Source of the DNA: a virus
Lineage: Duplodnaviria > Caudoviricetes
Strand: one strand, 5' to 3'
Virus record (IMG/VR): IMGVR_UViG_3300031825_000171
Location: 1-53,682 of that record
Length of the DNA stretch: 53,682 nucleotides
Shown here: in pieces, positions 1-44,330 of the stretch
How positions within the stretch are numbered: the stretch's first letter is position 1
How the letters are laid out: each line of letters opens with the position of its first letter
The notes under the pieces: generated by a model
Told to the model about the DNA's origin: nothing
Seen by the model: only the letters and a program-made list of their open reading frames with translations
Databases searched by the model: none
Made by a program: the position numbers and the translations under genes

Positions 1-126
1 AATACGGGAGCTTGCTTGTGTGCTAGGCTATCCATGCTGCGTACGCGGCGGGAGGGCCTTCGCTTGGCATCGCTCGTTGATGCTGGGGGCCGCGACGGTT
101 GCACCCGTTGCGGTCGCCCTCTCTTT
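1..126. repeat. Exact 126-nt repeat of 43310-43435
   Basis: Base-by-base comparison; first mismatch at 127 (a) vs 43436 (t). Confidence 0.95.
33..126 (+). ncRNA. Structured small RNA, sRNA-Xcc1-like
   Basis: Extended -10 TGcTAGGCT (21-29); three hairpins needing G-U pairs on + strand, the last followed by CTCTCTTT; family resemblance is from memory. Confidence 0.5.
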
Positions 127-137
127 ATTTCGGTTTC

Positions 138-146
138 TGGTAAAGT
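138..146 (+). promoter_or_regulatory. Extended -10 promoter for methyltransferase moron
   Basis: CTGGTAAAGT retained in both alleles (also 43452-43461) within otherwise diverged spacer. Confidence 0.45.
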
Positions 147-171
147 TCTCATTCACAAACAAGGATGACAA

Positions 172-1017
172 ATGGACTTGCGCCTGAACATTGAAACCAC
201 GGAGCAGATCAACCAAGCTGCGAACGTGCTGAACTACCAGCCGTTCATACTCTCAGACGATCTGCAAACAGGCGTTGCCTATTCGTGGCAGTACGCCAAA
301 GACCCGAGAGTTAGTCCACCGCTCGTCTTTCGCAGAAAAGACTATTTAGAGCAGGAATGGATCAGCGTGTCCCAGTCGAACGCGCGCCTGCGGTCGATGT
401 ATGAGGATTTGCTCGATGAGGTCTCTGCGCGCTTCACCGGGGGATCGCTGCTCGACGTTGCTTGCAACAACGGGTATTTCCCCGTAGGCGCTGAACTCCG
501 GGGCATGCGTGGCGTCGGCATGGACTTGGGCGACTATAGCGCCGCTGTCGCAACACTCAACACCATCCTCGGGACGAGGGCTAAGTTCCTACATCGCCAT
601 TACGACTCCATCACGCACGTCCTACCCATCGGTGAGCAATTCGATGTCGTCGTTGCGTCCGCGATCATGTGCCATCTGCCGGACCCGCTGCATTTCCTCG
701 CGGCGCTGGGAAAGATCGCTCACAAGGCGATTCTGTTCTGGGGCCAGATGGTCGATACCGACGAATTGCTTGTGGCCTACAGCCCGCCGCACGCCAACCT
801 TTCGTCCCTGACCGAATTCCCGGTGTGCTTTAATGACAACACTCGGATAAGTCGCGGGCTGTTCGAGCAGTCCATGAAGCTCATGGGATTTCGTGAGATC
901 ATCGAAATTCCGCCGCGCGACACTTGGGTGCTGGGGTTGCACGAGAGCCGAGGCATTCCACTCGACCAAGAGATTAAGACTGGGTCGCGTCATGTCGCGC
1001 TTCTCGCCATGCGTTGA
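172..1017 (+). CDS. Class I SAM-dependent methyltransferase (moron, allele A)
   Basis: LLDVACNNGYF motif I, FDVVV, CHLPDP; opposite strand to late operon. Confidence 0.85.
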   Translation: MDLRLNIETTEQINQAANVLNYQPFILSDDLQTGVAYSWQYAKDPRVSPPLVFRRKDYLEQEWISVSQSNARLRSMYEDLLDEVSARFTGGSLLDVACNNGYFPVGAELRGMRGVGMDLGDYSAAVATLNTILGTRAKFLHRHYDSITHVLPIGEQFDVVVASAIMCHLPDPLHFLAALGKIAHKAILFWGQMVDTDELLVAYSPPHANLSSLTEFPVCFNDNTRISRGLFEQSMKLMGFREIIEIPPRDTWVLGLHESRGIPLDQEIKTGSRHVALLAMR

Positions 1018-1470
1018 TCATATTATCAGCGTCGGAAGTTCCGCTATAAGGTCCGTTTCCGTGGGAATGGTTCTCGTCCCGGCCTGCACATCCGCGAGAA
1101 TCTGATAGCACGCATCCCAAACGAGGGAGCGCCATTTCCGCATTGCCCGCCCCTCTGTCTGGAACTTCGTCACCGCAGGCTCGTCGGCGTAGGTGACCGC
1201 AGTAAAGATGCTGTCGTAGCCCTTTTCTCTCGCCGCTGAATCGAGATGCGCTTGCACAACATCCATTAGTCGCGCCTGAACTTGAGCTTCGCTAGGCGGA
1301 TCGATCACAACGCTCCGAGCGGCGTCGAAGTGGCAATTCGGCTGATTGTCGATATAGGTCTGCCACGCCACGTTACTCACTTCCTCCGCGCCCTCGGGGA
1401 TGGACGATACATCGTCCGAGTAGAAGGCCGATGCCTTTCCGTTCGCGTCGATTACAGCGTATCGTTTCAT
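1018..1470 (-). CDS. Tail fibre assembly/chaperone protein
   Basis: Follows fibre; AFYSDD N-terminus; HLD..A.EKGYDSI..A.TYA and WRSLVW motifs. Confidence 0.75.
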   Translation of the reverse strand: MKRYAVIDANGKASAFYSDDVSSIPEGAEEVSNVAWQTYIDNQPNCHFDAARSVVIDPPSEAQVQARLMDVVQAHLDSAAREKGYDSIFTAVTYADEPAVTKFQTEGRAMRKWRSLVWDACYQILADVQAGTRTIPTETDLIAELPTLII

Positions 1471-1471
1471 G

Positions 1472-2320
1472 TTATTGGCCTATGGCGATGTAAAAAATGG
1501 CCGGGGTTCCTGAGGACACGGTAGCCGTGAATCCGGTCGTGGAAATCCCGGAGCATTGCGGAGACGACGGATTTGTCGAGTTGCTGCATACCGCGACAAC
1601 GGAATAACATGCCGATGCGAACGCTGTCGGGAATGTGATGACTACGCCGGTCGTGCCGGAGGTTCCAGTGCCCCACTGAATAATCAAGCCGCCCGGCAGT
1701 TTCATGTACCCGCTTGATGCGAGCGACTTGCTGGACGCCAGCCCTGAAGAAGTAACCGCCCGCGTCGCATCGCTTCCAGCAAGCGCTTCTGCTCCGGTCG
1801 CAATTTCGAGCAGTCCGCGAGACGTGTCAGTAGCCTGCACCGATACGTCTGCGATAGTGTTGTACCCATTCCCGGAAGCATTGACCGCGAAGGTCGCAGC
1901 AGACCCTGAAACTAGAGTTACGTTCGATGCCGCTCCGTCTATCGTGTCGCCCACAGTGACACGGCCTACAGTTATTGAGACGGCGGCGTTATTTCGTATC
2001 GTGACGATGTACCCATTCGCCATCGTCGCCGCATCGCCAAGGGAAATCGTAAACGTGGTCGTGACTGAGGATGGGACTTCAAGAGTCCTTTGATGATCGC
2101 CGGCTACCGTGGAATCGGTCGTGGTTACGAGGCGAGCGGTTGTATCGAGGGCGGTTACTAACTTTGAATTGATCCCCTCTATAGCAGCCTTGAACGGATC
2201 GGCTAGCTTGGTTTTTATCGTGCTCCACTTGACCTGATTGGATGCGGCTGTAGAGCCGTCATCTGCTGGGGGCGCGGAGTTATAACCGGAAATACTTGTT
2301 GAAGAATATTTAGTTCCCAT
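1472..2320 (-). CDS. Tail fibre (short allele) with gp53-like C-terminal domain
   Basis: GYMKLPGGLIIQWG..FPTAF motif; Ser/Thr rich. Confidence 0.85.
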   Translation of the reverse strand: MGTKYSSTSISGYNSAPPADDGSTAASNQVKWSTIKTKLADPFKAAIEGINSKLVTALDTTARLVTTTDSTVAGDHQRTLEVPSSVTTTFTISLGDAATMANGYIVTIRNNAAVSITVGRVTVGDTIDGAASNVTLVSGSAATFAVNASGNGYNTIADVSVQATDTSRGLLEIATGAEALAGSDATRAVTSSGLASSKSLASSGYMKLPGGLIIQWGTGTSGTTGVVITFPTAFASACYSVVAVCSNSTNPSSPQCSGISTTGFTATVSSGTPAIFYIAIGQ

Positions 2321-2343
2321 CTGTTATCCTTGTTATTGGGAAT

Positions 2344-2368
2344 AAAAAAACCGCCCGGAGGCGGCTTT
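2344..2368 (-). terminator. Rho-independent terminator after ejection genes
   Basis: Minus strand AAAGCCGCC-TCCG-GGCGG-TTTTTTT; identical at 45871-45895. Confidence 0.8.
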
Positions 2369-2518
2369 ATGAGATTTATTAAAGCTTTTATTGGTGCGGT
2401 GATACTTGCTGCGGTACTTACGGCACTGTTGCCGTTCCTGCCGTTCTGGCCGTGGGTAATTGTCCTGTTTCTTGTTCTCTTGATGCGAGTCCCGCCAAGT
2501 ACGAAGCAGCCCGAATAG
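2369..2518 (+). CDS. 49-aa membrane peptide antisense to ejection gene (allele A)
   Basis: GGAGG 7 nt before ATG; MRFIKAFIGAVILAAVLTALLPFLPFWPWVIVLFLVLLMR; positional counterpart at 45896. Confidence 0.7.
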   Translation: MRFIKAFIGAVILAAVLTALLPFLPFWPWVIVLFLVLLMRVPPSTKQPE

Positions 2519-4442
2519 TTGTTTCTGTGGGCTTGTCGTAACGCCCGAGAACGATCAAGGCTCTACGGCCTTCTGGCGTCAGTGATGCTTTTGCTACTGT
2601 TTTAGGGGCGATCATCGCGGCAGGTAGGCCGGCCATACCCCGTATCGTGAATACCCTTTTGACGGCGTCCCAAGCCATCAAAAGCGGAGCGGTAGGGGAG
2701 CCTTCCGTAAATCCCCTGTAGGCGATCCGCTCCAAAGCCTCACCTACCGCTTTTAGTTCCCCCCTCGCCTCACTGTTCCCGAAGATCACATTAAACTTTG
2801 CGCCTTCCGGCATGGCGTCTATGAACTTCGCGGCGGAGAAGTTAGGCGAACTAGGATTGCGCTTAGACGGAGCTATGATGGCGTTCTCTATGGCTCTCTC
2901 GATGAAATAACGCCGCGTCTGGGGTATAAGCTCAGGGTTGGCCCTATTGAGCATGTTCACCGTTTGCGATACTTCCGTGGGCTTGAGCTTTACTAGGAAG
3001 TCCGCGACACGTTCGGGCGAACGATCACCAGCGCCGAGGTACTTTCCTATTACAGAGTCCTCAAGCTTGTTAATCGCTGCGGAGTTTGCCCGGTAGTTAT
3101 CCCTAGCGGCTTTGAGCAGTTGTGCGGCATTTCCCTGACCACCGGCTACCGCTTCGTCCAAGTCAGACAAAACCCCCTTAACCAAGCGAGACGCAATCAT
3201 TCTCTGCTGCGCCTTGTCTATGTCCTTGAAGATTTGCCCCGTCCCGGCAGACGCTTTGCCGTAAACCTCAAGCAGCCTGCTCGCCTCATTGGCTGTCAGT
3301 GACGGAGCATCAGGGGCAATAGTCTTAAACCCGCCGTTCTCCCATCCCGCCCAAACCTGTTTAGCCTGCGGCTCTGTTTTTCCGTAGTGCGTCTTAACAA
3401 CACCCGCAAGGTTGTCCTTCATGCCCTTCAGCCGATTAACCAGGGAAGCGGTAGCATCCCCGCCGCCAGGAACGTCTAACTCCTGTATTAGCCCGTCTAT
3501 CGTGGATGTGAGATTCTTGGTTGGTATGACTTTCGCATTCCCAGCGGCCGCATCTACAGCATCGAAATCGGCCGCAGCCTGAGAGCGTCGAATCTTGACC
3601 GCTCCGTTTACAGCATCATCAAAGGCGCTTCCCAGAATTGTTCCCATGCGAACATCGCTCACCTTGTTGGGCGTGATGTCGTCCATGATCTTATTGAGAC
3701 GCTGAACAGAGGCTGATACCTGATTAGCGCCAAACTCCTGAAACTTTCTTGCAGAGAATGGGTTCTTCGCCGCCATTCCTTCCACCATCATCGTCGCCTC
3801 GTCTCCGGTCTGCTGCCCCAGTGAAAGCGGTATTTTGGTTTCTCTGGAAATCTCGGCACCGCGATTTGCGTAATCGGTCGCAAGGGTTTTTTGAGTGGAC
3901 CGAGCAACCATGTTTTTAGGAACATTCCGGCCGGCGGTTAATGCGAAATCCAGTACCGCAGGTAGAATGGCTCCGGTTGCCTTACCGACATCTCCGCCCG
4001 ACTGTTCGCCTATCGCTGAGCCAGCGGCAGAAAGGCCGGTCATTACGGCGTTTCTAACCGTTCCCAGCCCCCCGCTGACGGCACTGTTGCCCACAACCTC
4101 GCCAACGGTGCCTGCGGCCCTATCTGCCTCATTCTGAGGGCTTGCCTGCACTCTGGAGGTCGTAGGCCGTGAGAGACGTTCAGTTAATTGGCGAATGATC
4201 GGCGCAAAGGGACCGGCGAACATTCCGGTACCGAGGTTGTTGAACATTTCTCCGACTTGAGACGCGCCACGAAAAACACCCTTTGCGCCTTCTGCAACTA
4301 CGCCAGATACCGATGCTACCGGCTTCTCTTGCGGAGTTTCCTTTGCGATCTTGTAGGCTGCGGCTACGGTCTCAAACTCAGGCGTACCCTTCTTATCCTG
4401 ATTGCTGACAATCCATTGTGCGTATTCTTCAGCAGTCGCCAT
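2418..4442 (-). CDS. Internal virion/DNA ejection protein 3 (allele A)
   Basis: Third of three large Ala/Gly-rich helical proteins between nozzle and fibre (P22 gp7/20/16 synteny). Confidence 0.7.
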   Translation of the reverse strand: MATAEEYAQWIVSNQDKKGTPEFETVAAAYKIAKETPQEKPVASVSGVVAEGAKGVFRGASQVGEMFNNLGTGMFAGPFAPIIRQLTERLSRPTTSRVQASPQNEADRAAGTVGEVVGNSAVSGGLGTVRNAVMTGLSAAGSAIGEQSGGDVGKATGAILPAVLDFALTAGRNVPKNMVARSTQKTLATDYANRGAEISRETKIPLSLGQQTGDEATMMVEGMAAKNPFSARKFQEFGANQVSASVQRLNKIMDDITPNKVSDVRMGTILGSAFDDAVNGAVKIRRSQAAADFDAVDAAAGNAKVIPTKNLTSTIDGLIQELDVPGGGDATASLVNRLKGMKDNLAGVVKTHYGKTEPQAKQVWAGWENGGFKTIAPDAPSLTANEASRLLEVYGKASAGTGQIFKDIDKAQQRMIASRLVKGVLSDLDEAVAGGQGNAAQLLKAARDNYRANSAAINKLEDSVIGKYLGAGDRSPERVADFLVKLKPTEVSQTVNMLNRANPELIPQTRRYFIERAIENAIIAPSKRNPSSPNFSAAKFIDAMPEGAKFNVIFGNSEARGELKAVGEALERIAYRGFTEGSPTAPLLMAWDAVKRVFTIRGMAGLPAAMIAPKTVAKASLTPEGRRALIVLGRYDKPTETTIRAASYLAGLASREQETGQLPTARTAGTATVP

Positions 4443-5842
4443 TACTGCCCCCTTAGGATGGCGTCAGCTTGATCACGTATGGACCCGCTAGCCTGTGCGG
4501 GCTTAGAGCGAAACTCCCCTTTAAGTGATTTCTTCTCATCATCAAACGACTTCATGCGGTTGCCGGTTTCCTGACGGATTATCTCTATAACCTTCTTAAC
4601 CTGCTCTTTGGTCTGTGCAGATGCTAGCAATGCCTCAACCTTCTTAATCTCACCCTCTGCGGTTTGAGCGCCACCAGCGGTCGCACTGCTAAGAATCTTG
4701 GCGTATTCATTAACGACCGTCTTAATCGCGAGATCGAGCGCTGCCACGTCAGGATCGCCAAGAATGGTCTTCTTGCCGGCGAGAATCCATTTATTAAGAA
4801 TAGGAGAGCCTGTACGGTCTAGCTTGTCAGATAATTGCAACGCAAGATCGGCGTTCTTCTGCAGCGTTCGTTCAAACGCTCCGACCTGTGCGGCTTGGCG
4901 TGATATTTGAGAAAGTGCTACAGACGTAGCGCGTCCAGAGATTTGGCGTATGCGGGCTTCCTCTGCCGTGTTGCCTTGCGCTTTCGCCTGCTCCGCTGCA
5001 CGATTCAGAATCTTAGCCGTGTTTATAGACCCCTGCGTACCTCGCCCCAAGTTGGGAGGGAGCGTGCCGTCTATCGCATAGCGTTGTGCAGCAGCGTCTA
5101 TCGCTTCAGTCGAAAGCCCAGACTGCGTTACACCTTCAGCGCTCGGCACCTTCTCCATCTGCCCGGTGGACTTGTTGAGTCCTATAAAACCTCCGTTTCC
5201 GTCAGGCTGCACGTTCGTATATTTGCTAGCGCCGCCAGTAACGACTACGGGGGCCACTGAACGAGCAAACTTCGGTCCTTTCCCTATTTCTTTCCAAGTC
5301 CCATCTTGTACGTATTCCTGCGTTACCTCTTGGTCGCCTACCTGAATCTTACGAACAGTTCCAACCACCGGCTTTTTCATCTGCTCGGGCGCAGTAACCA
5401 AAGGAGTGCCGTCAGCGTTGTATCGTGTATTCCCAAGCGTAAATCCACCTTCTGTTTTCATCTTGAGCAAGTCGGCAGGGGATGCGAACTGCATAGCGAC
5501 TGCCCGTTGCTTTGCGGGATCGTTTCCAGCCGCCGTCATTGCGGACTCGAACGCTTGTTTCCTTCGCACCTCGCCAGCGGCCTTCTGAGCCGCCAGGCTG
5601 GGTCCGCCGAGCAATTCCGGGGGCACGTTAATACCACGAGCCGACAACGCAGCAGCGGCCTTCTCAGGGGCGATAGAGCCGCTTTCAACCTGCTTTGCCA
5701 GTTGCTGCACGAGGAGTTGTGCCTGTTGAGCTTGCAGGGTGCGGTTCTTTTGATCTTCTTCTATGTTGGCCGCTTGTATCTTGGGATTCAACACCCCAGC
5801 AGCCGAACGCAGTCCGCCGGCCAGTTCATCAAGGTAAGCCAT
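4442..5842 (-). CDS. Internal virion/DNA ejection protein 2 (allele A)
   Basis: Synteny, composition, TAATG coupling. Confidence 0.7.
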   Translation of the reverse strand: MAYLDELAGGLRSAAGVLNPKIQAANIEEDQKNRTLQAQQAQLLVQQLAKQVESGSIAPEKAAAALSARGINVPPELLGGPSLAAQKAAGEVRRKQAFESAMTAAGNDPAKQRAVAMQFASPADLLKMKTEGGFTLGNTRYNADGTPLVTAPEQMKKPVVGTVRKIQVGDQEVTQEYVQDGTWKEIGKGPKFARSVAPVVVTGGASKYTNVQPDGNGGFIGLNKSTGQMEKVPSAEGVTQSGLSTEAIDAAAQRYAIDGTLPPNLGRGTQGSINTAKILNRAAEQAKAQGNTAEEARIRQISGRATSVALSQISRQAAQVGAFERTLQKNADLALQLSDKLDRTGSPILNKWILAGKKTILGDPDVAALDLAIKTVVNEYAKILSSATAGGAQTAEGEIKKVEALLASAQTKEQVKKVIEIIRQETGNRMKSFDDEKKSLKGEFRSKPAQASGSIRDQADAILRGQ

Positions 5843-7257
5843 TAGCGCCCCAATACGTTGGTTTGTTGCGGACGAAGACCGCCGGCCAGAGCGTAAAGCG
5901 CGGAGCCATACAGATTGTTCTTGAGCTCGCGTTCCTTGGCCTGTGCGTCCAGCAGCTTGGAGGCAACGCCGGATTGCAGGGTGAGTTGGTTATTCATCCC
6001 CGTCCCGAGAATATCCGCCCTGCCCCTGTCCCTTACCGTGTTGTAGTTGGTCAGATCCATGTTGCCGAAGCTCGACCCCGATACGCCACGGTCTTGCAGG
6101 CTTTGAGTAAGCCGCCCGTAACCTTGAGCCGTCGTTTCGTCGTAAGGATCGGTGAGAGACTTGAGATAAGGGGACTGATTACCCTGAAGTCCGTTATAGA
6201 TGCTGTCCAGCTTGGAGGTATCGAACGGGCCTTGATTCTTGGCATAGTTGATCGCTGCGAGAGACGGGGCGACAGCGAGGGTGCTTCCTAATAGGTCTTT
6301 CCCGCTACCTAGCAGTCCGCTCAGAAAATTAGATGACCCGCCCGAGTTTAATTCCCCGCTTAAGAGAGACTTCAGTGAGGAAAGCCCGCCTGGCAAAGAC
6401 CCGCCATTCATTAATGTATTTATCTGATCGAGTATGGTTCCCGTTCCAGAGGCGGACGTGCCGAATGGAATAGCCCCGTAGTCTCCGCTAATAGCCCCCA
6501 TGCTTTGCAACGCAGGACTTGCATCGATCGCAGCCCAATTTATAGATCCGTCAGCGTTCAACCCACCGAGACTGTCCGCCCACTGCTGAACGTCAGTAAG
6601 CCCGGAATTTCCAACGCTGTTACCCAGAATGTCATCGAAGAATCCCACATTACCCCCACTGCCGGCTGCACCGCTAAGTGCCCCCGCATCAGCCGCCATT
6701 CCTCCGGCATAGCCCGCCCCACCCTCTGCGGACACCCATCCAGCACCGGCACCCTCACCACCAGCAGCACCACCAGCGGCCGCACCAGCCGCTGCACCAA
6801 ATCCAGCGAGAATAGCCCCAAGGGCAAGTTTGCTCGTCCAGTGATCGGGCTCAGCAGTACCGAAATCAAACGGGTTTTGCTGCGCAGTCGTCTCGCCTTT
6901 ATAGAAACGCTGTCCGGTTCTCGGGTCAGTTTCCCACTGACCGTTACCGTATTGATAACGGTAGTAGTCATCGAGTGTTCTAATGCCCCTGCGCTGCGCT
7001 TCCTGACTGCGATCTAAGACGCTCTGATTAAGCCCGTTCGTGAGCTCAGGGACGTATCCCGCCTGAGTAGCGGCATCAAGGAATGCTCGTTGTTGAGCTT
7101 GGTAAAGATCGAAATCTTCGGTATTGATGCGCTGGCGCCCTTCATCTGTCGGACTAAACCAGCGGCCGGATTCGTCCTGAAACGCGCCGGGATTGGCCAT
7201 AGCCAGTAGGTCTTGCATCGTGTACTGACTCGGGAGCCTAAGGTCTGAAAGAGCCAT
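5842..7257 (-). CDS. Internal virion/DNA ejection protein 1 (allele A)
   Basis: Gly/Ala-rich hydrophobic block, RGVSGSS motif; synteny. Confidence 0.7.
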   Translation of the reverse strand: MALSDLRLPSQYTMQDLLAMANPGAFQDESGRWFSPTDEGRQRINTEDFDLYQAQQRAFLDAATQAGYVPELTNGLNQSVLDRSQEAQRRGIRTLDDYYRYQYGNGQWETDPRTGQRFYKGETTAQQNPFDFGTAEPDHWTSKLALGAILAGFGAAAGAAAGGAAGGEGAGAGWVSAEGGAGYAGGMAADAGALSGAAGSGGNVGFFDDILGNSVGNSGLTDVQQWADSLGGLNADGSINWAAIDASPALQSMGAISGDYGAIPFGTSASGTGTILDQINTLMNGGSLPGGLSSLKSLLSGELNSGGSSNFLSGLLGSGKDLLGSTLAVAPSLAAINYAKNQGPFDTSKLDSIYNGLQGNQSPYLKSLTDPYDETTAQGYGRLTQSLQDRGVSGSSFGNMDLTNYNTVRDRGRADILGTGMNNQLTLQSGVASKLLDAQAKERELKNNLYGSALYALAGGLRPQQTNVLGR

Positions 7258-7778
7258 TAGTTCCCCCTCCCGCGGACGGAGTACAGGTATTCGCTCTCGT
7301 CAGACTGCCCGAGGAAATACAGCAGCTCATAGAGCTTGAGATGGTCAGGTAGTGTCATTTTTTCTTTTTGTGTCCTGACGAGGATGATTCCGGTTTTCTT
7401 GGAGCCGCGCAGCATGTTCAAAAACGCCACGCTCCCCCTGAGTGTGTTTCTCCTGCTCGCCCACTTGAAGAACACGCCCTTTACCTCAACGATCATCCCG
7501 ATCGTGTTCGTGCCCATTAATGCTATCGGTCCATGACCTGACGAAAAGCTTTTGTTCTTGTCGTCAATGATCCACGTCTGCTGATACGGACTTTCTTCTA
7601 TGGCTTTAACAAATTCCTCTTGTGAAAGACCTTGAGGAATGGGGAAGGAACCAGCCTTATAAGCGGCCCAGAGAATCCCCATGTCCTTCGAGTATTGCTC
7701 GCCATCGAGTATTTCCAGATGACGTATAACTGGCCTTCCTGACTTAAAAAGTCGTTCCCTGCGTTCCTTGGGCGTCAA
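7257..7778 (-). CDS. Virion assembly protein (position of GNAT-like T7 gp13/P22 gp14)
   Basis: Between nozzle and ejection genes; conserved in second allele. Confidence 0.5.
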   Translation of the reverse strand: MTPKERRERLFKSGRPVIRHLEILDGEQYSKDMGILWAAYKAGSFPIPQGLSQEEFVKAIEESPYQQTWIIDDKNKSFSSGHGPIALMGTNTIGMIVEVKGVFFKWASRRNTLRGSVAFLNMLRGSKKTGIILVRTQKEKMTLPDHLKLYELLYFLGQSDESEYLYSVRGRGN

Positions 7779-9346
7779 GCAAGCTCCACGTTATCCACCT
7801 GCCACGTCTTAGTCGTCAGCGCGCTAAACGTCGCCGAAGCAGCCGTACCCCTTCCAACTTGGGAGAAGTTTTGATGGCTGATCCGGTCAACGAACGAAAA
7901 GCCTTGATTGAAGTAATTAGCACCACCGAAATAGATCGGACCACCGAAGTAAACTCCGGTATCGCTAGACGGCGGACCCTTGAGCGTCACACTGGCCGCA
8001 CTCGTGTTGTATTCGTCAGCCCAGTCAACAGAGACGCTAAAGCTCACTTCATTCATGCGACGATACTGAACATTCCCACGGGTTATATGTCGGACGTTAC
8101 TCTCGTAAAGTCGGGTCTTTCTTATAAGCTGAATGGACGATGCCCCAGCATCTCCACTCGTTCCTGTTCCGTTCATATCGAACACGCGCCCATCGGAAGC
8201 GCCGAAATAAACGGTTGTCTCAGTCGTTCCCGGCCGGCGCATGAACTTAGCTGCGGAAGTATTAAACCCAGCCGAGTCTTCTGTTCTGTAAACCGACCAC
8301 GGAGAAAGCTTCGCCCTTTCTCCCTTCTCGCCTATCAACGCACCAGAAAATAAGATGTCCTTGAACAGCACCAAGACTTTAGAAGTCAGGAAGAAAAATA
8401 CCTTCTGGTTCTGCTGGTCATAAATCGCTATGCAACCCGTTAGATTCTTAACCGTCGTCGGTATCCAACGTGATAAATCGTCAGCAGCCACATCGCCATA
8501 GTTTTGCGTCGAGACGAGGCTATCTATGTTCCCGCCTTTTTTCATGTACACGATGTCGTTGCCGGTCGATACCATGGATTCGGTACCAACCGCCTGAGAG
8601 CCGGGGTAGAAGTTGTCCCACTTGTAAGTACTGGGACTCGTCCCCGAGAGCTTGAACAGCGACCCCTCGACGGTGGAGATAATCAAGTCACCAGCTAAAG
8701 TCTTAGCGACCCCGTTTATGGGTCTAAGGTCTGGCGAAAGCATGTAAAACGCTTCCAGACCTGTGCTGAAAGACCCGCCGCCGTCTGTAGTTGGACCGCC
8801 TCTTTTCGTCGTGTCGTAGGAAGTCGGGTCTTCAAACGCGCTCGCCACCATCAAATGCGGCGTGTCACTTCCAGCGGTTACATTGAACAGCCACACCCTA
8901 CCGTTATGCACAATCCCGTATTTCGCATACAGGGTAGAGCCCAATCCAGTTGTGATTGCGCTAAAGGTCGTGCCGTCCCACTTGGAAACTGCTGTTAGCT
9001 TGGCAAGGTCCGTAATGACCAGATAATCACCAAGCGACCAGTATGTGTCTCTTAACTGAGATGAGGCATCACAACTTCCTTTGCTCGTCCACGTCGTAGA
9101 GCCATCCCAGAGATAGACCGTGTTACCAGACTGAACAAGCGTAGTTTCAGAGTCATTACGCTTAACGAGCTGCATGAGCCCTCGTATATCACCCGCATTC
9201 GTAGCCGTGCCTTTGAGGTCGACCGGCGCTCGAGGTATGAGCTTGTTAGAGTCTTTGGAAAGATCGAAGTTATAAGACCCAGAGGCAGCTTCGTTGATGT
9301 CAGGCTGTTGCTGCTCGTTAATACCCCCACCAAAGAATACTTTCAC
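7775..9346 (-). CDS. Tail nozzle/packaged-DNA stabilisation protein
   Basis: FGGG.N start, beta-rich 523 aa, synteny. Confidence 0.75.
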   Translation of the reverse strand: MKVFFGGGINEQQQPDINEAASGSYNFDLSKDSNKLIPRAPVDLKGTATNAGDIRGLMQLVKRNDSETTLVQSGNTVYLWDGSTTWTSKGSCDASSQLRDTYWSLGDYLVITDLAKLTAVSKWDGTTFSAITTGLGSTLYAKYGIVHNGRVWLFNVTAGSDTPHLMVASAFEDPTSYDTTKRGGPTTDGGGSFSTGLEAFYMLSPDLRPINGVAKTLAGDLIISTVEGSLFKLSGTSPSTYKWDNFYPGSQAVGTESMVSTGNDIVYMKKGGNIDSLVSTQNYGDVAADDLSRWIPTTVKNLTGCIAIYDQQNQKVFFFLTSKVLVLFKDILFSGALIGEKGERAKLSPWSVYRTEDSAGFNTSAAKFMRRPGTTETTVYFGASDGRVFDMNGTGTSGDAGASSIQLIRKTRLYESNVRHITRGNVQYRRMNEVSFSVSVDWADEYNTSAASVTLKGPPSSDTGVYFGGPIYFGGANYFNQGFSFVDRISHQNFSQVGRGTAASATFSALTTKTWQVDNVELA

Positions 9347-10050
9347 CTGTACACTGCCCCGTATCTACGGCAAGGGTTTTGCCCCTTGATGAGCTTAAGC
9401 AGCGTGGCATACGCAGTTTGATAAGTACGATCCTTTTCCAGTACCGCAGCGATATCAATCTCGTTTTTCACATCCTCCCAAGCGAACTTGAACCGACGCG
9501 AGCACATTTCCGTGAATGAGTAATTCTCTTCGTCGTTATGAAAAGGCAGGGTATCCGAAGAAGCGGAAACCATGACGGAACCCTCGTAATCGTATGTCCA
9601 CTGATCGCCGTTTTCAGAAGACGAAGGAACTTGAAAAAATCCAACCTTTTTAGTACTGGTCGGCTCCCAATAGAACCAAAGAGGATCGCCATATTGCGTG
9701 GCATAGTCGTAGTACGTAATTTGCAGACCTTCAAGACCGCCGGCATATTCGTAAATCTGCCGATTATCCGCAGCTCTGTAGAAATGCGGATACCCGTAAA
9801 AGCGGGTGAAGTCCGCTGCTAGAGCATACGTTCTCTGCTCAGTGACAAAGGTTACTGAGCCAGTCGTCTTTCTCTCGGAAGGGATAAGACGCTCGGCAAT
9901 CAACTTCACGAGTTCATCCTGAATCGCCACTACAGCGAGATTCAGCGATGCGTTGTGCTGCGTATCCGACAGGGTCAGGACTAAATCGGTATCCCCCCTG
10001 ATAATGGCGTTCTTACGCAGAATTCTGTTGATTGCCTCTAGCAATGTCAT
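9343..10050 (-). CDS. Head-tail adaptor (tail tubular A-like)
   Basis: MTLLEAINRILR start; Y.L..DF motif. Confidence 0.75.
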   Translation of the reverse strand: MTLLEAINRILRKNAIIRGDTDLVLTLSDTQHNASLNLAVVAIQDELVKLIAERLIPSERKTTGSVTFVTEQRTYALAADFTRFYGYPHFYRAADNRQIYEYAGGLEGLQITYYDYATQYGDPLWFYWEPTSTKKVGFFQVPSSSENGDQWTYDYEGSVMVSASSDTLPFHNDEENYSFTEMCSRRFKFAWEDVKNEIDIAAVLEKDRTYQTAYATLLKLIKGQNPCRRYGAVYR

Positions 10051-10340
10051 ACCATCTCCACGGTCCCGAACTTAGCCCTTAGCGCATCCAATAGAAGATG
10101 CTGCATACCCTGCCTGTTCTGCTGAGAGCCGAGCATCGTCCCGGTTATGTTTGTCTTGAATGTGAAGCTGTATTCGTTGCCGTCGATCCAGACGGACACG
10201 GCGATTTCGTTGCTTCTTTTTCGTGGGGCTTTGGGTTGCTGCGGTAGCTTGATTTCAGTTGTGGCTACAGCCTCTTGAATATCAGTCCTGCGCCCCGCCT
10301 TTGCTTCGTACCGCAGCCTTGCCTTATCGAACTCGGACAT
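10047..10340 (-). CDS. Hypothetical protein after capsid
   Basis: Second copy differs at 7 of 97 residues. Confidence 0.75.
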   Translation of the reverse strand: MSEFDKARLRYEAKAGRRTDIQEAVATTEIKLPQQPKAPRKRSNEIAVSVWIDGNEYSFTFKTNITGTMLGSQQNRQGMQHLLLDALRAKFGTVEMV

Positions 10341-10351
10341 AAAGCCCCATG

Positions 10352-10378
10352 AAAAAGGGGCTTACCGAAGCCAGCCCC
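10352..10378 (-). terminator. Terminator after capsid gene
   Basis: GGGGCT-GGCTTCGGTA-AGCCCC-TTTTT. Confidence 0.7.
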
Positions 10379-10392
10379 AGTTGAACTACGGA

Positions 10393-11475
10393 TTACAGCT
10401 TGCTTGCGCCGCTGCGGATTTTGCTGAGCCAGTTTCCGTTGAGAATCTCGCCGATCCACCACGATTTCCACGCGAGCGAACCAAACTCATTAAACGGATC
10501 AGCCGCACCCGACGAACCCGGCTTGTGGTAGATGATTTCCACCGCAGGCGGGTTTTTCGGGTTGTACATCTCGGCAGAGGTTGTCGCATGCGTGTTACCC
10601 AGACCCACCGAGCCGACCGCTTCCTTGCCGTAGATATACGTGCTGTAAACGTCGTTGAGGATACTGGACGCACCACGCAGACCCGTCGCCGTGGTCGTAC
10701 CGGCAGACGTAGAGACCGGGATTATCTCAGTCGAACACCAGCGAACCCCACCAACTGCACCGAATTCAAACGGCATGGTATCGGTGTAACCGCCGTACTG
10801 TTCGACAGGGATAAAGCCCGTCAGACCGCGAATGTCCTCTTCCACGTCAACATGCGCGATACCGTAGTAGCTCGCCCGCACCGGAGACGTCCCGATGTTG
10901 GTAGAGCCGTAGGTATCAGACGTGAACTTCATGGCACTGTTGCGATTAAGCTGGTTAACGGCGTACTTGATGTCTGTCAGCGTTATGGCTGAAGTCACGT
11001 TCGTATCCGCCGTTCCGCCACCAACGGCACCATTGGCGTAACGCACCAGGGAGGCGCCGGAGTAGATGGTCTCCATCAGCACGTTCAGCGACTCGCCCGC
11101 ATTCGCCCCCAACGTGTCCAGGAACTTGGCGGCACGCATGTTCATCTGCAGGAGGTCGATTTCTTCCGACAGGGCGATTGCATTGCCCTTCTTCAGAATC
11201 GTCGCCGTAACCGTGCTAATAGTCGGAAGGACCGTGCTACGGGTGGGGAGGGTCGTTGCGCCCGTCAACTCGCTAAGAGTCGCAGTTGCAACCGCCAGAT
11301 TGTCGATGCGCTCCCACTTAACAGAGGCTGTCGAGCCGTTCTTTTCCAACGTCCCCGCGAGAGTCCCGTTGTAGAATGGGAGTTTCTTGCGAGCCGCCGA
11401 AAGCAGGCCCTTCATCAACTGGAAATTAACGCCAAGAGCGACGTTAGATGCAGTGCTAGAAACGAGGTAAGGCAT
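10393..11475 (-). CDS. Major capsid protein, N4-gp56 family
   Basis: FIPVEQYG, EFGAVGGVRW, G.ADPFNE.GSLAWK motifs. Confidence 0.9.
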   Translation of the reverse strand: MPYLVSSTASNVALGVNFQLMKGLLSAARKKLPFYNGTLAGTLEKNGSTASVKWERIDNLAVATATLSELTGATTLPTRSTVLPTISTVTATILKKGNAIALSEEIDLLQMNMRAAKFLDTLGANAGESLNVLMETIYSGASLVRYANGAVGGGTADTNVTSAITLTDIKYAVNQLNRNSAMKFTSDTYGSTNIGTSPVRASYYGIAHVDVEEDIRGLTGFIPVEQYGGYTDTMPFEFGAVGGVRWCSTEIIPVSTSAGTTTATGLRGASSILNDVYSTYIYGKEAVGSVGLGNTHATTSAEMYNPKNPPAVEIIYHKPGSSGAADPFNEFGSLAWKSWWIGEILNGNWLSKIRSGASKL

Positions 11476-12261: not shown

Positions 12262-12465
12262 TTACTTGCCGGTTAGCAACTTAAAGAGAAGGTCGAAACC
12301 ATCCTGCCGGCCGGATTGATATTTAAGTTCCTCGATAACAGCGTTGTTCGCCTCTATTGAACCAGCGGGGCGGTAGGCTGGAACCACCGGACGGCTTTTG
12401 TGCATTGCGTCCATGATTTCCTGAAACTCCCTCGTTTCCCGCAACTGCTTTAACAGTTCCTTCAA
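12262..12465 (-). CDS. Small head-module protein
   Basis: Coupled to portal; Y.SGRQ.G motif typical of post-portal genes. Confidence 0.65.
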   Translation of the reverse strand: MKELLKQLRETREFQEIMDAMHKSRPVVPAYRPAGSIEANNAVIEELKYQSGRQDGFDLLFKLLTGK

Positions 12466-14492
12466 GCGGTCTCCTTGCTAGTGGCGGCTTCCTGCATCGC
12501 CTGTTCCGGTATCTGTTGAGCTTCAATGAGTGTCTTAACGGTCTGCGCTTCGATAAGGTCAATCTCAGCAGCGGCTTTCTTTGCAGCTAAAACTTGCTCG
12601 CGACTCTGACCGGCCATGTCCGATTGCATCTCAACAGAACTCTTACGGGCGTCTACTTGCAATTCAGCAACCGCAAGTTTCTCCGTGGATTGCAACTCGG
12701 CTGCAGCGATCCTCTCTCTCGACTGAATCTCTGCGGCCTTCACCTGAGCGCCCGACTTAAGCTGCTGGTTCTCAGTCTGCAATTGCTGCATCGCCTGCTG
12801 CATCTGCTGCAATTGCTGTTGAACCTCAGGCGGTATCTGCGGGCCTTCGTCCACTTGAACGAACTGCTCCGGATTTTTAAGCCCCGCGTCCCGATAAGTC
12901 TGGAGCATGATGTCAGTGGCTTTAAGCTTCGGCGCAAACAGCGGGCTTCCCGAGAAAAACGCAGTAGCAGCCCCGACTCGCTGAGTCCTCTGTTCTTCAC
13001 CCAGGAGACCGCGAGAGCCGACGACATCGAAGTGCGCGTTAGCCTGAATGTCCTTATTCGTCGCCCGTATGAAGTCAGGCGTAGACATTTCGGAGTTATA
13101 GAACGTGTACTCCGTCATGTTCTTTCGGTTAAGCTCGTGCTGCATATAAAGCCACGGCCTTAACCCGCCTTCTTCCAGCATTCCAACAAACCCAACCGTG
13201 CGAACCTCCGCGCCTTGCTGAGTCTTGTTAACTTCTGTGGCCGTCTGCCGATCGGAATTCACAACCCCGGTACGCAGGGAAGAAACGCCGGTTCCCTCCT
13301 GCATCTGGCGCAAGCCCATTTGCAACGCCTCAAGCGCCCATTTCGGATCACCTATATCAAGAACGGTCATACCCTTGCCCATACTTTTGGTCGGCGTCTT
13401 TGCTCCGGGGGCAATCGTCGGTCCATCGTTAGCAACATAATCAGGATCATTACCGTCATACTCAACAGGCGGCTGGACTTTGAGGGCAGAAGCGTCAATA
13501 AAGTTATTGGCAGAGATAGTCGTTATCTTCTGCATCGGAGACTGCTTAATGATAGGCGACGTATAGTATGGGTCGCGGATATCCTGCCTCTCATAGCCTC
13601 CGTATATTATGGAAGGGTAAGGAAGCTCATTCGGAGCCATGTAGACAATGACGCCGTTCGCAAGGATCGCAAACGAGTTGGGGAAATACATATCCCCGTC
13701 GTCTCGATCGATGTTCAGATCGCCGTACCACTTCGTCAGCTTTACGTCTTTGGTCTGAACCTCCCCGTTCTTGTGTTCCTCGTCGGGGATCTTGGAAAGG
13801 CGGTTGGGCATCCAACCGTTACCCTTTGCAATCCTCTTCAGTTTCCACAGCGGCATGTACTCATTGATAAGCATCGACCCCGTATAGAACAGGTTCGTTC
13901 CGATCACCGATGGAGATTGATCGGGGTAGGCATTCCACATCGAGACGGGTTGCCATACTGGAGCAGAGACTTGCTTAAGCTTCTGCCCGTCATACACCAT
14001 CATCTCTTTGGCGAACTTAGCTTCCGCCACAAACCCGCCGTGGTGCAGGGCTTCTTTAACCGAAAGACGAAAGCGCCCCTTAAAGCCGAAGTCCTTGTGT
14101 TGCTGCACCATGAGAGAACGCAACAGACCATCGGCAATACGCTGCTTCTGCTCGGGTACGCGGGTCTGCCCCATTTCCTTGTTTAGTTCTACGTGCGGCT
14201 CGAACCAGTTCTCATCCGGGAACGTAATACGCATTACGTCATCGGTTATGATTTCCGAAGCCTTGGAGAGCTCACCAAGCTCAAAAGCAGACTGCCACGC
14301 AGCCTCTACAGGCATACCCGGCGTGACCTTCTGCAACGGGTTCATGGCGATTTGGCGGTCAACCTCCCTCCACTTTTCTTCGTGGTTTTTGCGGAATTGC
14401 GACTTCGACCGCGTGGAAAGCTCGTCGTTGATATACGTTTCGAGCTTCTTCCAGTCCGCAGAAACGATCCGCCTATTTTTAGGTTCAGCCAA
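12462..14492 (-). CDS. Portal protein (P22-like)
   Basis: Follows terL; RQTATEV motif; Gln-rich C-terminal coiled coil. Confidence 0.88.
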   Translation of the reverse strand: MAEPKNRRIVSADWKKLETYINDELSTRSKSQFRKNHEEKWREVDRQIAMNPLQKVTPGMPVEAAWQSAFELGELSKASEIITDDVMRITFPDENWFEPHVELNKEMGQTRVPEQKQRIADGLLRSLMVQQHKDFGFKGRFRLSVKEALHHGGFVAEAKFAKEMMVYDGQKLKQVSAPVWQPVSMWNAYPDQSPSVIGTNLFYTGSMLINEYMPLWKLKRIAKGNGWMPNRLSKIPDEEHKNGEVQTKDVKLTKWYGDLNIDRDDGDMYFPNSFAILANGVIVYMAPNELPYPSIIYGGYERQDIRDPYYTSPIIKQSPMQKITTISANNFIDASALKVQPPVEYDGNDPDYVANDGPTIAPGAKTPTKSMGKGMTVLDIGDPKWALEALQMGLRQMQEGTGVSSLRTGVVNSDRQTATEVNKTQQGAEVRTVGFVGMLEEGGLRPWLYMQHELNRKNMTEYTFYNSEMSTPDFIRATNKDIQANAHFDVVGSRGLLGEEQRTQRVGAATAFFSGSPLFAPKLKATDIMLQTYRDAGLKNPEQFVQVDEGPQIPPEVQQQLQQMQQAMQQLQTENQQLKSGAQVKAAEIQSRERIAAAELQSTEKLAVAELQVDARKSSVEMQSDMAGQSREQVLAAKKAAAEIDLIEAQTVKTLIEAQQIPEQAMQEAATSKETA

Positions 14493-14494
14493 AT

Positions 14495-15955
14495 TTAGCC
14501 CCAGTTCGTAGCGCCTCTAGCAACGTGGCGTTTTGGTCTTTTTATTGTTTCGGTGCGCGCGTGACGCAGCATCATATGGGCGTAGCGGGATGCGCTTATC
14601 AAGTCGTCCCTGAGCTTCACGAGCCTCATTTGCTCGTCACGGTGATACGTCCTCTGCTCCTGCAGCCATTGCCGACAGGTGCTAAAAACCTTCCATCGCC
14701 CCGTCTCCATACGCTCAAACATGGCAAGAATGGAGGCCTCTACAGAATTCCCGCCCTCCCCCTCTTTTTGCCCCTGCTTGGGGTCCGGAGGGTTGGTCGC
14801 CTTGGCGGGAAGCATGTTCAGGCCCTCTTTCGAGTACGCCTTTACTAATTCGTCGCCGGTGCCCTTCTCTGTGTTCAATCCGTCGTGCGGCCAGGCGGTC
14901 GGAATCCACGCCCCCCAAGGCTGTATAGCGGCAGCGTGTATAGCCGGTATCGCCCTTGATTCCCGATACTCCGCGACAAGATAAACAACGTCTGCGTCAC
15001 GGTCCCACGCGAGGCTCGCCGCGGCTGCGGGATGGTCCCAACCAAAGTCGATACCGTTGATGCGCGGCCAGTGCCTTGGAATTTCGAAAGGATCGATAAC
15101 GAGCGATTCTTCGGTAAACGGGAACACCAGACCCCTTCCGTAAGAGGGAACGCCCCTGCGCCGCATTTCTCGTTCGTGAGCAGGGAAACCAGACTCCAAT
15201 TGCTTAGCTTCTTCGGTTAACTGACCGTCCTTAACCAAGTGCCCCGCGTCATCCCAGGAAGCTTGTATAAGCGCCTGCCCGGGGCCGATGTGGTTCATGA
15301 AGTTGTTCACCACTTCGGTTAATCCAGACTCCGGCGTGAACGTGATGTAGAGAATCCCGTTCATGGAAATCGTCGCCCGCAAGTACTGCGACCAAATATC
15401 CTGCGGCGGCTCTTCGTCTAGCCATCCAAGGTGAATACGATGGCCCATGTGTTTCTTCGCCCCCTGCTCATAAGCGCGAAACATGAGCTTCGACCACCCA
15501 CCGGAGACATGCTTAACCAGCACCGTGTCGTAAGCATTCGGCACCCCGGGCTTTGAAGTCCGCTTGCCGATGCAATCAACAGGGATCGTTCCAGATCCCA
15601 AAGCTTGGGGTTCGTTAGGGTCGCCAAATAGCGTTTTCTGGCAGATGTCCCTAACCGCTTCGTTCGTCATGCCCCCGATCATTGCGACTATCGGATGCTT
15701 AAATCTGTGACCGTCCCACCAATCCGGATATCTTCCAGTTGCGTGTATCGCCGTCTCGAAACCGCCGCACCAGGTCTTGCCAGTACCATTCCCCGCCATC
15801 AAAACCCGTTGCGCAGCGGGCTTGTCTGTCTGGTGACCCTTAGCGTTGTGAAACTGCTTCTGATACTGATAGGGCGCGTAATATTCGAGACGGTGATACT
15901 TTCGTCGCCTCTCCATCAATAGGACTAGGCGGGCTAATTCCTCTTGGGGATTCAA
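14495..15955 (-). CDS. terL: Terminase large subunit
   Basis: AGNGTGKT Walker A, WLDEEPP Walker B, GIDFGWDHP, DDLISASRY. Confidence 0.95.
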   Translation of the reverse strand: MNPQEELARLVLLMERRRKYHRLEYYAPYQYQKQFHNAKGHQTDKPAAQRVLMAGNGTGKTWCGGFETAIHATGRYPDWWDGHRFKHPIVAMIGGMTNEAVRDICQKTLFGDPNEPQALGSGTIPVDCIGKRTSKPGVPNAYDTVLVKHVSGGWSKLMFRAYEQGAKKHMGHRIHLGWLDEEPPQDIWSQYLRATISMNGILYITFTPESGLTEVVNNFMNHIGPGQALIQASWDDAGHLVKDGQLTEEAKQLESGFPAHEREMRRRGVPSYGRGLVFPFTEESLVIDPFEIPRHWPRINGIDFGWDHPAAAASLAWDRDADVVYLVAEYRESRAIPAIHAAAIQPWGAWIPTAWPHDGLNTEKGTGDELVKAYSKEGLNMLPAKATNPPDPKQGQKEGEGGNSVEASILAMFERMETGRWKVFSTCRQWLQEQRTYHRDEQMRLVKLRDDLISASRYAHMMLRHARTETIKRPKRHVARGATNWG

Positions 15956-30005: not shown

Positions 30006-30206
30006 TCATGCCGCAGAATCGAGAAATAGGTCTGGGCGCAGAACAGAACGAGATACGCCAGTGACGCGCTCTACATCCAGCACTCGTTCTGCAGGGATTT
30101 TTTTCCACTGCTGAATCGATTGCACTTTTATTCCAAGCGCACGCGCTAAGGCGGATGCGCTACCAGCGGCATTCACCGCCTCCTTGATTCCACGTAAGGT
30201 GTCCAT
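30006..30206 (-). CDS. cro: Cro/YdaS-like regulator
   Basis: GSASALARALGI..QSIQQW, IPAER, LRPDLF. Confidence 0.9.
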   Translation of the reverse strand: MDTLRGIKEAVNAAGSASALARALGIKVQSIQQWKKIPAERVLDVERVTGVSRSVLRPDLFLDSAA

Positions 30207-30214
30207 GAAAAGAA

Positions 30215-30287
30215 ACGATACAGGAAATTCCTGTGCTATGCAAGTTAAACCTGCGGTGCCACCTATTGGCCCGCAGGTTATCCTTGT
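30215..30287. promoter_or_regulatory. OR: three operators and pR
   Basis: ACAGGAAATTCCTGT 30220, GCAAGTTAAACCTGC 30240, GCAGGTTATCCTTGT 30273; minus TTGCAT-17-TATCGT. Confidence 0.85.
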
Positions 30288-30291
30288 AGCT

Positions 30292-30765
30292 ATGGAATCA
30301 ATTCATGCGCGAATAAAGCGCCTCCGAATGGCGAAAGGCATGAGCCTAGAGACCTTTGCGGAAAAGGTCGGTATTAAGTGGCAGTCGGTGCAGCAGTGGG
30401 AAAAAGAGGACCACGAAGGGGGTACCGCACCATCGCGGAAGAGACAGGCACAAGTAGCCGCTATTCTTGGCGTGTCGCTCAACGAGCTCATGTCTGGGAA
30501 CCAGACGGGTTCGGAGGTTGTACGAGCCGATGCGGTACGTCCGATCATCGCATCGATACGTCAGAAACTGGAGCAGCTAGAAATGCTCCTAGGGCCGACT
30601 GTGACAGATCGGCGGTTAGAGGCTAACGGCTTTGTAAAGCTAAACCCGGATGGTATAAGCGGGACCGGTCACTCTACGGATGACCCAGTTAGCAAGCCGC
30701 TACGGCAGGCCGCCAGAGAGGAAGTTGAGCAGGTTGTGTCTGAAACGAAACAACGAAGAAAGTAG
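30292..30765 (+). CDS. cI: CI-like Xre repressor without evident S24 peptidase domain
   Basis: RIKRLR..GMS...AE.VG....V.QWE; divergent from cro. Confidence 0.85.
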   Translation: MESIHARIKRLRMAKGMSLETFAEKVGIKWQSVQQWEKEDHEGGTAPSRKRQAQVAAILGVSLNELMSGNQTGSEVVRADAVRPIIASIRQKLEQLEMLLGPTVTDRRLEANGFVKLNPDGISGTGHSTDDPVSKPLRQAAREEVEQVVSETKQRRK

Positions 30766-31426: not shown

Positions 31427-31466
31427 GCAGGTTTTTCTTGCATACCACAGTTTTTTCCTGTATCGT
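31427..31466 (+). promoter_or_regulatory. OL: two operators and pL
   Basis: GCAGGTTTTTCTTGC, ACAGTTTTTTCCTGT; TTGCAT-17-TATCGT, same hexamers as pR. Confidence 0.85.
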
Positions 31467-31506
31467 CTCTCCAACGCTCACCACACGAGCGGCACAGGAG
31501 ACGGGG

Positions 31507-33009: not shown

Positions 33010-33061
33010 CGCCTCCTGCGGGCGCTATGGAGTGGTAATGCCAACACACACGGAGGACGAG

Positions 33062-40394: not shown

Positions 40395-40724
40395 GTGAGC
40401 GAACCGGCCGACATGCTGACGGCGAAGCAGGCGGCAGCCATCCTGGGCGTGCCGGTCCGCTCCTTTTACGACCTGGGCATCCCGTGCTATAAACTGAGCC
40501 CGCGGCGTACCCGCTGGGCGCGGGCTGACATCGAGGAATACAAGGCATCATGCCGGTTTACTGGAGCAAAGCCGACGGCTGCTTCCGCTACGAGTTCGAC
40601 CGTCGTATTGAAGGCCGCCGTTACCGACTTACGAAGCTGCTTCCGAAAGGCTGGAGCCGAACCCAAGCCGACGCCTTCGAGCGCACGGAAAGCGCCCGTC
40701 TATACGCTGAGTCCAAAGGCTTAG
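40395..40724 (+). CDS. xis: Excisionase-like HTH protein overlapping int
   Basis: LTAKQAA.ILGV...FY, RW..ADI. Confidence 0.75.
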   Translation: MSEPADMLTAKQAAAILGVPVRSFYDLGIPCYKLSPRRTRWARADIEEYKASCRFTGAKPTAASATSSTVVLKAAVTDLRSCFRKAGAEPKPTPSSARKAPVYTLSPKA

Positions 40725-43286: not shown

Positions 43287-43341
43287 ACTGCACACTCCCA
43301 TGCTGGTGGAATACGGGAGCTTGCTTGTGTGCTAGGCTATC

Positions 43342-44328: not shown

Positions 44329-44330
44329 AC

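Follow-up and report, generated by a model that had tools for sequence, protein, structure and literature searches.

The closest described counterpart of the locus reported here is the sieA (superinfection exclusion A) gene of phage P22, whose inner-membrane product blocks genome entry and which is encoded on the complement strand, 23 nt after the injection gene 16 and before the tailspike gene 9 (BK000583). According to the sections on sieA in the survey of Leavitt et al. (2024, PMC10883804), this gene is present in 22 of 66 P22-like phages, always between genes 16 and 9. The same sections place genes 16 and 20 among the most variable virion genes of the P22-like phages, and describe two SieA types that are just 24% identical and give an indistinguishable exclusion against divergent ejection proteins. 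The slot in which sieA lies corresponds to the "ant moron" of P22-like phages; in the account of this region by Villafane et al. (2008, PMC2629481) its content is variable, it is absent in some phages, and the virion gene cluster of the group has no other moron site. A second precedent is gp15 of the long-tailed phage HK97, presented in the part of Cumby et al. (2012, PMC3594210) devoted to it as a small inner-membrane moron product whose gene adjoins that of the tape measure; made from the prophage, it belongs to the YebO family and blocks genome entry in a manner that depends on features of the incoming tail.

The DNA analyzed here, an IMG/VR stretch of 53,682 bases that we call the window, is an entire virus record. 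Its two ends (1-10422 and 43310-53682) are diverged copies of one stretch of genome, each ~10.4 kb in length and lying ~43.3 kb apart. They begin with an exact match (positions 1-126 and 43310-43435) and contain blocks that are 70-88% identical, with the third large protein unrelated between the copies. Because the record ends are diverged copies, the modules A and C of an initial annotation are, judged by their sequence, two alleles of one locus. Both alleles occur, as contigs only, in a soil metagenome run (X1), the one public run with the sequence; this is a DNA run, and the run search gave no RNA run. The contig pieces (unitigs) of X1 break precisely at 43435 and at 45898, where a 126-nt and a 50-nt segment shared by the alleles end; the word depth is ~100 over 43406-45898 versus ~144 over the shared core, with ~123 also seen, contig depth being a poor measure. 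This suggests two or more co-occurring mosaic variants, not a tandem duplication, and we infer that the record traces a path through these variants that exceeds one genome length. A DNA near-identity search of both alleles against 50,697 phage records gave no match. The features on which the following depends are:

14495-15955, minus strand: large terminase
12462-14492, minus strand: portal
10393-11475, minus strand: major head protein
5842-7257, minus strand: first large virion protein, a putative ejection protein
4442-5842, minus strand: second large virion protein of allele A, a putative ejection protein
47855-49018: second large virion protein of allele C
2418-4442, minus strand: third large virion protein of allele A (674 aa), at the position of P22 gene 16, a probable ejection protein
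45945-47855, minus strand: third large virion protein of allele C (636 aa)
1472-2320, minus strand: tail fiber of allele A (Pfam Gp53-like_C and a PHROG tail fiber match)
44527-45846, minus strand: tail fiber of allele C, its true start being the ATG at 45846, from alignment
2369-2518, plus strand: peptide A gene (49 aa plus stop), overlapping the 674-aa gene by 101 nt
45896-46000, plus strand: peptide C gene (34 aa plus stop), overlapping the 636-aa gene by 56 nt
2347-2368, minus strand: intrinsic terminator of the late operon, allele A
45874-45895, minus strand: the same intrinsic terminator, allele C
40550-41593, plus strand: integrase
30184-30765, plus strand: repressor

Several further virion proteins are encoded, and all of the late virion genes are on the minus strand. 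By its gene content the phage is temperate, since both an integrase and a repressor gene are present. Beyond the tail-fiber genes, on the strand opposite to the late genes, there is a SAM-methyltransferase-like gene (Pfam Methyltransf_23/11; 172-1017 and 43465-44328, both on the plus strand) with alleles that are ~70% identical.

The three large proteins are probably ejection proteins, judging by the gene order and by the annotations that others have given to weak homologues. The third protein of allele C has weak matches to an "ejection protein" (Pseudanabaena phage Pan3) and a "putative injection protein" (Rhizobium phage RHph_Y1_10), and it also matches a gene of Sphingopyxis phage VSN-002 located after annotated P22-type DNA transfer protein genes. 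The allele A counterpart has no match among phage records and viral-contig searches gave no close relatives of it; in a large protein library it has 783 homologues, the closest being P0002 (64% identical across the whole length) and P0044 (78% across the final 129 residues). BLASTP finds no match between the third proteins of the two alleles, and the second large proteins have just their first ~130 residues in common. What has been swapped between the alleles is a cassette that comprises two-thirds of the second protein (its C-terminal part), the third protein in full and the peptide.

Peptides A and C are encoded in the same slot and on the same strand as P22 sieA, convergent with the ejection gene and before the tailspike or tail-fiber gene; the appeal of the initial annotation to SieA as a precedent is thus well founded with respect to both slot and orientation. 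As with P22 SieA, the products are predicted to be membrane-embedded, the phage is temperate and the presence of the gene is patchy among relatives. The differences are just as clear. P22 SieA has 164 aa and several helices, whereas the peptides, with 34 and 49 aa, are 3-5 times shorter and have one helix or at most two, so that neither has the multi-helix character and size (~160-200 aa) of the SieA inner-membrane proteins. In BLASTP comparisons with P22 SieA (type A), peptide C did not align and peptide A had an E value of 9.5. A promoter has been mapped for P22 sieA, which stays clear of gene 16; for the present ORFs the promoter scans gave nothing, and they overlap the ejection gene. Moreover, the phages considered here are uncultivated inhabitants of soil and water that carry a fiber, whereas P22 has a tailspike. 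The resemblance to HK97 gp15, as far as the published description of that protein extends (PMC3594210), is that of a small membrane protein encoded by an insert in the virion cluster beside a DNA-conduit gene; in contrast to the YebO-family gp15 of a long-tailed phage, these peptides are without a family. If they act at all in this way, the peptides would do so in the manner of SieA or gp15 by analogy, not as members of the SieA family. Two traits of morons are found at the locus. Some relatives have the peptide gene and others (L008 and most of the gap-free loci discussed below) do not, and its composition is odd, the G+C of the peptide ORFs being 0.49 and 0.43 versus 0.55-0.58 for the flanking genes, a difference due in part to the coding of hydrophobic residues. 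As to a promoter and terminator of its own, no promoter-like site near the ORFs reached the threshold of the scan, and no plus-strand terminator was seen after them.

Both ORFs have the coordinates, lengths and overlaps (101 and 56 nt) originally claimed for them, and their products are, as claimed, unrelated (local score z 1.5). Peptide A is hydrophobic over residues ~3-39, corresponding to one long or two short helices, and then has a polar C-terminal tail. As for its description as a two-helix peptide, the hydropathy profile does peak twice and falls in between, where the sequence is rich in proline, but single-sequence AlphaFold2 gives one continuous helix over residues 2-40 (mean pLDDT 84.9). 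Peptide C is predicted to have an amphipathic N-terminal half and one C-terminal transmembrane helix. A protein identical to its 34 aa has been called once in the protein collection (P0001). Peptide A is not called as a gene there, and neither viral-contig nor protein searches gave it a close DNA relative: the protein search yielded no candidate, the best ESM Atlas score (0.79) was under the meaningful level, and a degenerate DNA pattern for the middle of the peptide had 0 matches in viral contigs. When the peptides and the other slot proteins described below were compared with Pfam, PHROGs and PADLOC, nothing was under an E value of 0.01. We also considered a single "two-helix family" uniting peptide A with the peptides of loci L031 and L007; it was dropped, since z scores of 0.3-0.4 reflect composition only.

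Between the tail-fiber and peptide genes the two alleles have a 50-nt junction (2322-2371 and 45849-45898) that is 100% identical and contains the tail-fiber ribosome-binding site, the terminator and the peptide start codon, its last three bases being the shared ATG of both ORFs. In allele A the tail-fiber gene is divergent from the peptide gene, their start codons being 49 nt apart. On the minus strand the terminator has a 9-pair stem and a run of seven T, with the tail-fiber ribosome-binding site coming after it. The ORFs had been said to start from the same ribosome-binding site and ATG. The shared ATG is confirmed, but the supposed ribosome-binding site, a GGAGG 7 nt before the ATG of peptide A, belongs to the late-operon terminator, forming the loop and 3' stem of the minus-strand hairpin; it is thus partly paired in a stable structure. 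A 26-nt string comprising the terminator and the ATG recurs, letter for letter, in 10 unrelated viral contigs (L035-L044) from two unrelated phage groups, in which the ATG opens just 5-7 codons. Because the combination recurs there without an ORF, the start signal alone proves nothing. The recurrence itself could mean that a strong terminator arose by convergence or that one terminator cassette is widely shared; the 26-nt pattern was also tried as a search anchor and rejected, since it led to unrelated phages only.

This recurrence is one argument for regarding the two ORFs as no genes at all, but chance frames produced by a GGAGG-bearing terminator, the ATG after it and the low-complexity 3' ends of the ejection genes. 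Promoter scans point the same way, having found none within 350 nt upstream of either ORF and a total number of sites not above that in shuffled sequences, as does the lack of a homologue or a gene call for peptide A. A first answer can be sought in the hydrophobicity of the frames. The best 17-residue Kyte-Doolittle means are 2.57 for peptide A and 2.41 for peptide C, respectively. Of 899 antisense ORFs taken from the late genes of 67 related loci, 13 attain at least 2.4, as do 4 of the window's 220 short ATG ORFs. A threshold of 1.88, the minimum for the slot peptides, is less discriminating, since 77 of the 899 control antisense ORFs reach it, but both of the unrelated alleles of the window are at the level attained by only the 13.

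We then fixed the amino acids of the ejection-protein tail and redrew its codons from the gene's own usage in 20,000 resamples. The observed hydrophobicity of the peptide frame was reached 5 times for allele A and 0 times for allele C. As recoding almost never reproduces them, the hydrophobic frames are not a by-product of coding for the ejection protein; apart from hydropathy, this is the sole test that bears directly on allele A. The codon usage of the tails is distinctive as well: the third codon position is A in 16/33 codons of the allele A tail versus 131/641 in the gene body, and in 10/18 versus 99/618 for allele C. The original claim that two hydrophobic ORFs would be unlikely by chance is supported by these two analyses.

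For allele C there is also a natural comparison. Locus L045, from another metagenome, has an allele C ejection gene that is 93.7% identical to that of the window over the last 600 nt before the junction (36 differences) and an identical peptide. Outside the overlap, 25 of 33 substitutions are silent for the ejection protein; inside it, 3 of 3 change the ejection protein and 3 of 3 are silent for peptide C (Fisher p 0.023, from three substitutions in one pair of loci and for allele C alone). To judge from this pair of sequences, the constrained reading frame of allele C switches at the overlap, which again argues against a chance frame.

To place the two alleles among their relatives, we surveyed 76 entries, including 9 near-duplicates, that were anchored on the conserved N-terminus of the tail fiber. 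The slot was taken as the space from the upstream gene to the tail-fiber start, with a cut-off of at least 90 nt. The survey omits L080, L087 and L094, where the match begins at the edge of the locus or off residue 1, L034 (18 residues matched) and L003-L006 (the same contigs as L007-L010), and the control counts omit the near-duplicates L026, L049, L061, L063, L064, L073, L079, L084 and L091. The majority of the anchored loci have no space at the slot; at least 90 nt are found there in 14 distinct loci (L027 having been read by hand). A reverse-strand ORF with a predicted transmembrane helix or signal peptide is present in 11 of these 14, and these ORFs are of many unrelated kinds. Small peptides of 28-50 aa are encoded by the two alleles of the window (winA and winC) and by L045, L007, L009, L031, L092 and L027. 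Larger products of the slot are encoded in three other loci:

708-1073 of L053, minus strand: lipoprotein of 121 aa, with a lipobox after the signal peptide
2782-2991 of L054, minus strand: lipoprotein of 69 aa, with a lipobox after the signal peptide
1304-1633 of L057, minus strand: predicted secreted cysteine-containing protein of 109 aa

The three exceptions among the 14 are L065, which has a reverse gene for a soluble protein of 211 aa, L060/L061, with a small basic ORF on the same strand, and L067, with an AT-rich, promoter-like spacer. In L007, L009 and L027 the peptide ORF takes up an intergenic space of its own, and its overlap with the upstream gene is just 4-11 nt. Of the 11 slot ORFs tested, 8 have a GGAGG 4-16 nt ahead of the ATG, versus 2 of 393 control antisense ORFs, and in L007, L053, L054 and L057 it is outside any terminator; no Shine-Dalgarno sequence precedes the slot ORFs of L031, L027 and L065. 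The GGAGG of L053, L054 and L057 is also within a few bases of the opposite-strand tail-fiber start codon. During a first pass over L007-L034, the gap-free loci L015, L019 and L024 showed a hydrophobic antisense ORF inside coding DNA, at about the control rate. Four distant loci reached through the allele A protein family had no clear peptide, there being two doubtful ORFs without a Shine-Dalgarno sequence, in L099 and L100. The one in L099 (2094-2315, minus strand) encodes 73 aa, rich in glycine and with two helices, and is convergent with the ejection gene, which it overlaps by 65 nt; this locus encodes a distant relative of the allele A protein, and an integrase-like gene adjoins the 73-aa ORF. 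Similar slot genes for proteins of 204-211 aa, rich in cysteine pairs, are found in L027 (2833-3447, minus strand) and L065 (1172-1807, minus strand). That of L065 has no Pfam match, and that of L027 lies beside a gene for a 48-aa membrane peptide which abuts the ejection gene.

A chance origin has difficulty in accounting for such ORFs in 11 of 14 spaced loci, several of which have their own Shine-Dalgarno sequence and almost no overlap, in addition to the hydropathy, recoding and substitution results above, and we consider it improbable. Each ORF in the window is likely to be a real, translated gene. On these several lines of sequence evidence, both are very probably genuine genes for small membrane peptides that have been overlooked; this is in keeping with the earlier remark that gene callers easily miss them, peptide C having been called once in the protein collection and peptide A not at all.

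The overlap with the ejection gene, which covers its last 33 codons in allele A and its last 18 in allele C, was originally interpreted as tying each peptide to its ejection allele. Several observations suggest otherwise. In L008 a protein 55-57% identical to that of allele C is ~12 residues shorter and ends directly before the terminator, and there is no peptide. The extra tail of allele C covers the peptide helix and is the fastest-changing part of the ejection protein in the pair formed by allele C and L045. In the allele A family the conserved domain ends ~20 residues before the stop and is followed by a variable, low-complexity tail that differs even in the two closest homologues. The hydrophobic core of peptide A lies over this variable tail and the 49-nt spacer, with only its polar C-terminal end over conserved codons. 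Because all three overlap substitutions in the allele C/L045 pair change the ejection tail while none of them changes the peptide, the overlapped tail looks like unconstrained read-through and not like a functional tie. The overlap would then be incidental: the stop codon was shifted by a convergent insert, into which the ejection frame now continues, an interpretation that is fairly direct for allele C and a matter of inference for allele A. The supposed tie between peptide and allele accordingly fares badly, as the tail both tolerates three amino-acid changes out of three and is absent in L008.

The larger proposal built on this overlap was that of an allele-matched, effector/immunity-like pair, in which each peptide specifically blocks the membrane channel of its own ejection allele and is held to it by the overlap. 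There are features that would fit: the swapped cassette takes in the C-terminal two-thirds of the second protein, the third protein and the peptide together; and P22 mutants that escape SieA map, according to the passages on escape in PMC10883804, to the C-terminal regions of gp16 and gp20. In L045, too, peptide C stays with a C-type ejection cassette while the tail fiber has been exchanged for an A-like one. The sequence there is 93.7% C-like before the junction, whereas the fiber start is 86.7% A-like versus 70.1% C-like, and the crossover is, as read from these identities, within the 50-nt junction; this segment acts as a recombination joint. However, the peptide travels with the ejection cassette in L045 because the two are physically adjacent, and adjacency alone accounts for the linkage. 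The co-variation of peptide and ejection families among relatives, which had been proposed as a check, has exceptions: the C-type protein of L008 is without a peptide; in L031 a C-family ejection protein (26%) stands beside an unrelated 49-aa peptide; and L009 has a weakly C-like peptide (z 4.4; 1 of 500 shuffles, with 15 pairs tested) beside a protein without detectable similarity. To these can be added the rapid change of the overlapped tail in the allele C/L045 pair and its absence from L008. Nor does the SieA precedent entail type-matching: in the comparison reported in PMC10883804, SieA of P22 and that of HS1 (24% identical) are alike in target range. A complex prediction for peptide C with its ejection protein scored 0.00 in both runs, which, with a 4-row alignment and without controls, weighs neither way. 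Taken together, these exceptions make a matched pair very unlikely, and the terms "allele-matched" and "effector/immunity pair" are not borne out. The same low standing must be given to a wider version that treats the cassette as one functional unit: the inner-membrane conduit built by ejection proteins of a given cassette type would be jammed by the peptide of that type, and the co-occurring soil variants would be exclusion groups kept by recombination at the 50-nt junction. We regard this as highly doubtful.

The explanation that we favor, although tentatively, is that each ORF is an accessory, moron-type gene for a small inner-membrane peptide which would hinder the genome entry of related phages with no specificity for its own ejection allele. 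The components of this reading are not of equal strength. The peptide gene is probably an accessory insert, because the C-type protein of L008 has neither peptide nor tail and because the G+C of the ORFs is below that of their flanks. That its function might be an entry block is a more guarded suggestion, made by analogy from position, lifestyle and membrane character. Since the phage is temperate, a DNA-entry block expressed from the prophage is nevertheless a fair hypothesis.

Such a peptide might be expressed as follows. Transcription would originate within the first part of the tail-fiber gene, or farther upstream on the plus strand; there is no plus-strand terminator-like site between the methyltransferase gene and the peptide A ORF, so a long plus-strand transcript could reach the peptide A gene. 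The minus-strand terminator before the peptide start codon would end the ejection-gene transcript and, read on the plus strand, the same sequence would supply the GGAGG and the ATG, with translation once the hairpin opens. The peptide would be made from the prophage and inserted in the inner membrane, where it would hinder genome delivery by incoming related phages, whatever their ejection allele; during lytic growth, the convergent late transcript would silence its gene. The promoter, of which the scans found none, is the weakest link of this mechanism.

Type I toxins such as Hok, TisB and Ldr are small and have a single hydrophobic helix. The peptides could be real and have another role, either as a membrane-damaging toxin of this type or as a small modulator of a host membrane protein (lysogenic conversion). 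In the toxin version two things would silence the peptide: the late-operon RNA, which is convergent, and the hairpin that covers its ribosome-binding site. The likeness is one of layout: products of fewer than 60 aa (28-50 aa) with a hydrophobic helix, a ribosome-binding site partly paired in a hairpin, and a late-operon transcript that is antisense to the entire ORF. In addition, the L027 peptide has a weak match to the PADLOC "2TM effector" model (E 0.017). Unlike the type I systems, however, the locus has no dedicated small antisense RNA gene, the late-operon mRNA being the only antisense; Rfam gave no family in the window, and there is no match to a toxin or other protein family. The lipoproteins and the secreted protein that occupy the slot in relatives also fit envelope-modifying morons better than toxins. 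We consider such another role to be rather unlikely, and return to the accessory entry-blocking peptide as the preferred reading.

Should the peptides be made, use of the moron slot behind the last ejection gene, known from the enterobacterial P22-like phages, would extend to distant and uncultivated temperate phages living in soil and water, and there it would be filled by a changing set of envelope proteins, down to 28-50 residues in size, most of which gene callers have missed. Among candidates for an inner-membrane block of phage genome entry they would also be the smallest to date; peptides of this kind are easily synthesized and tested. There is in addition a caution here for the functional reading of gene overlaps, as a convergent insert can add a meaningless tail to a structural protein.

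Elsewhere in the window, two neighboring genes of the early region (31438-32541 and 33032-33763, both on the plus strand) are built of long tandem repeats, one with a 15-nt period (pentapeptide repeats) and the other with an 18-nt period (hexapeptide repeats). They apparently have in common a similar non-repeat C-terminal domain of ~80 residues.
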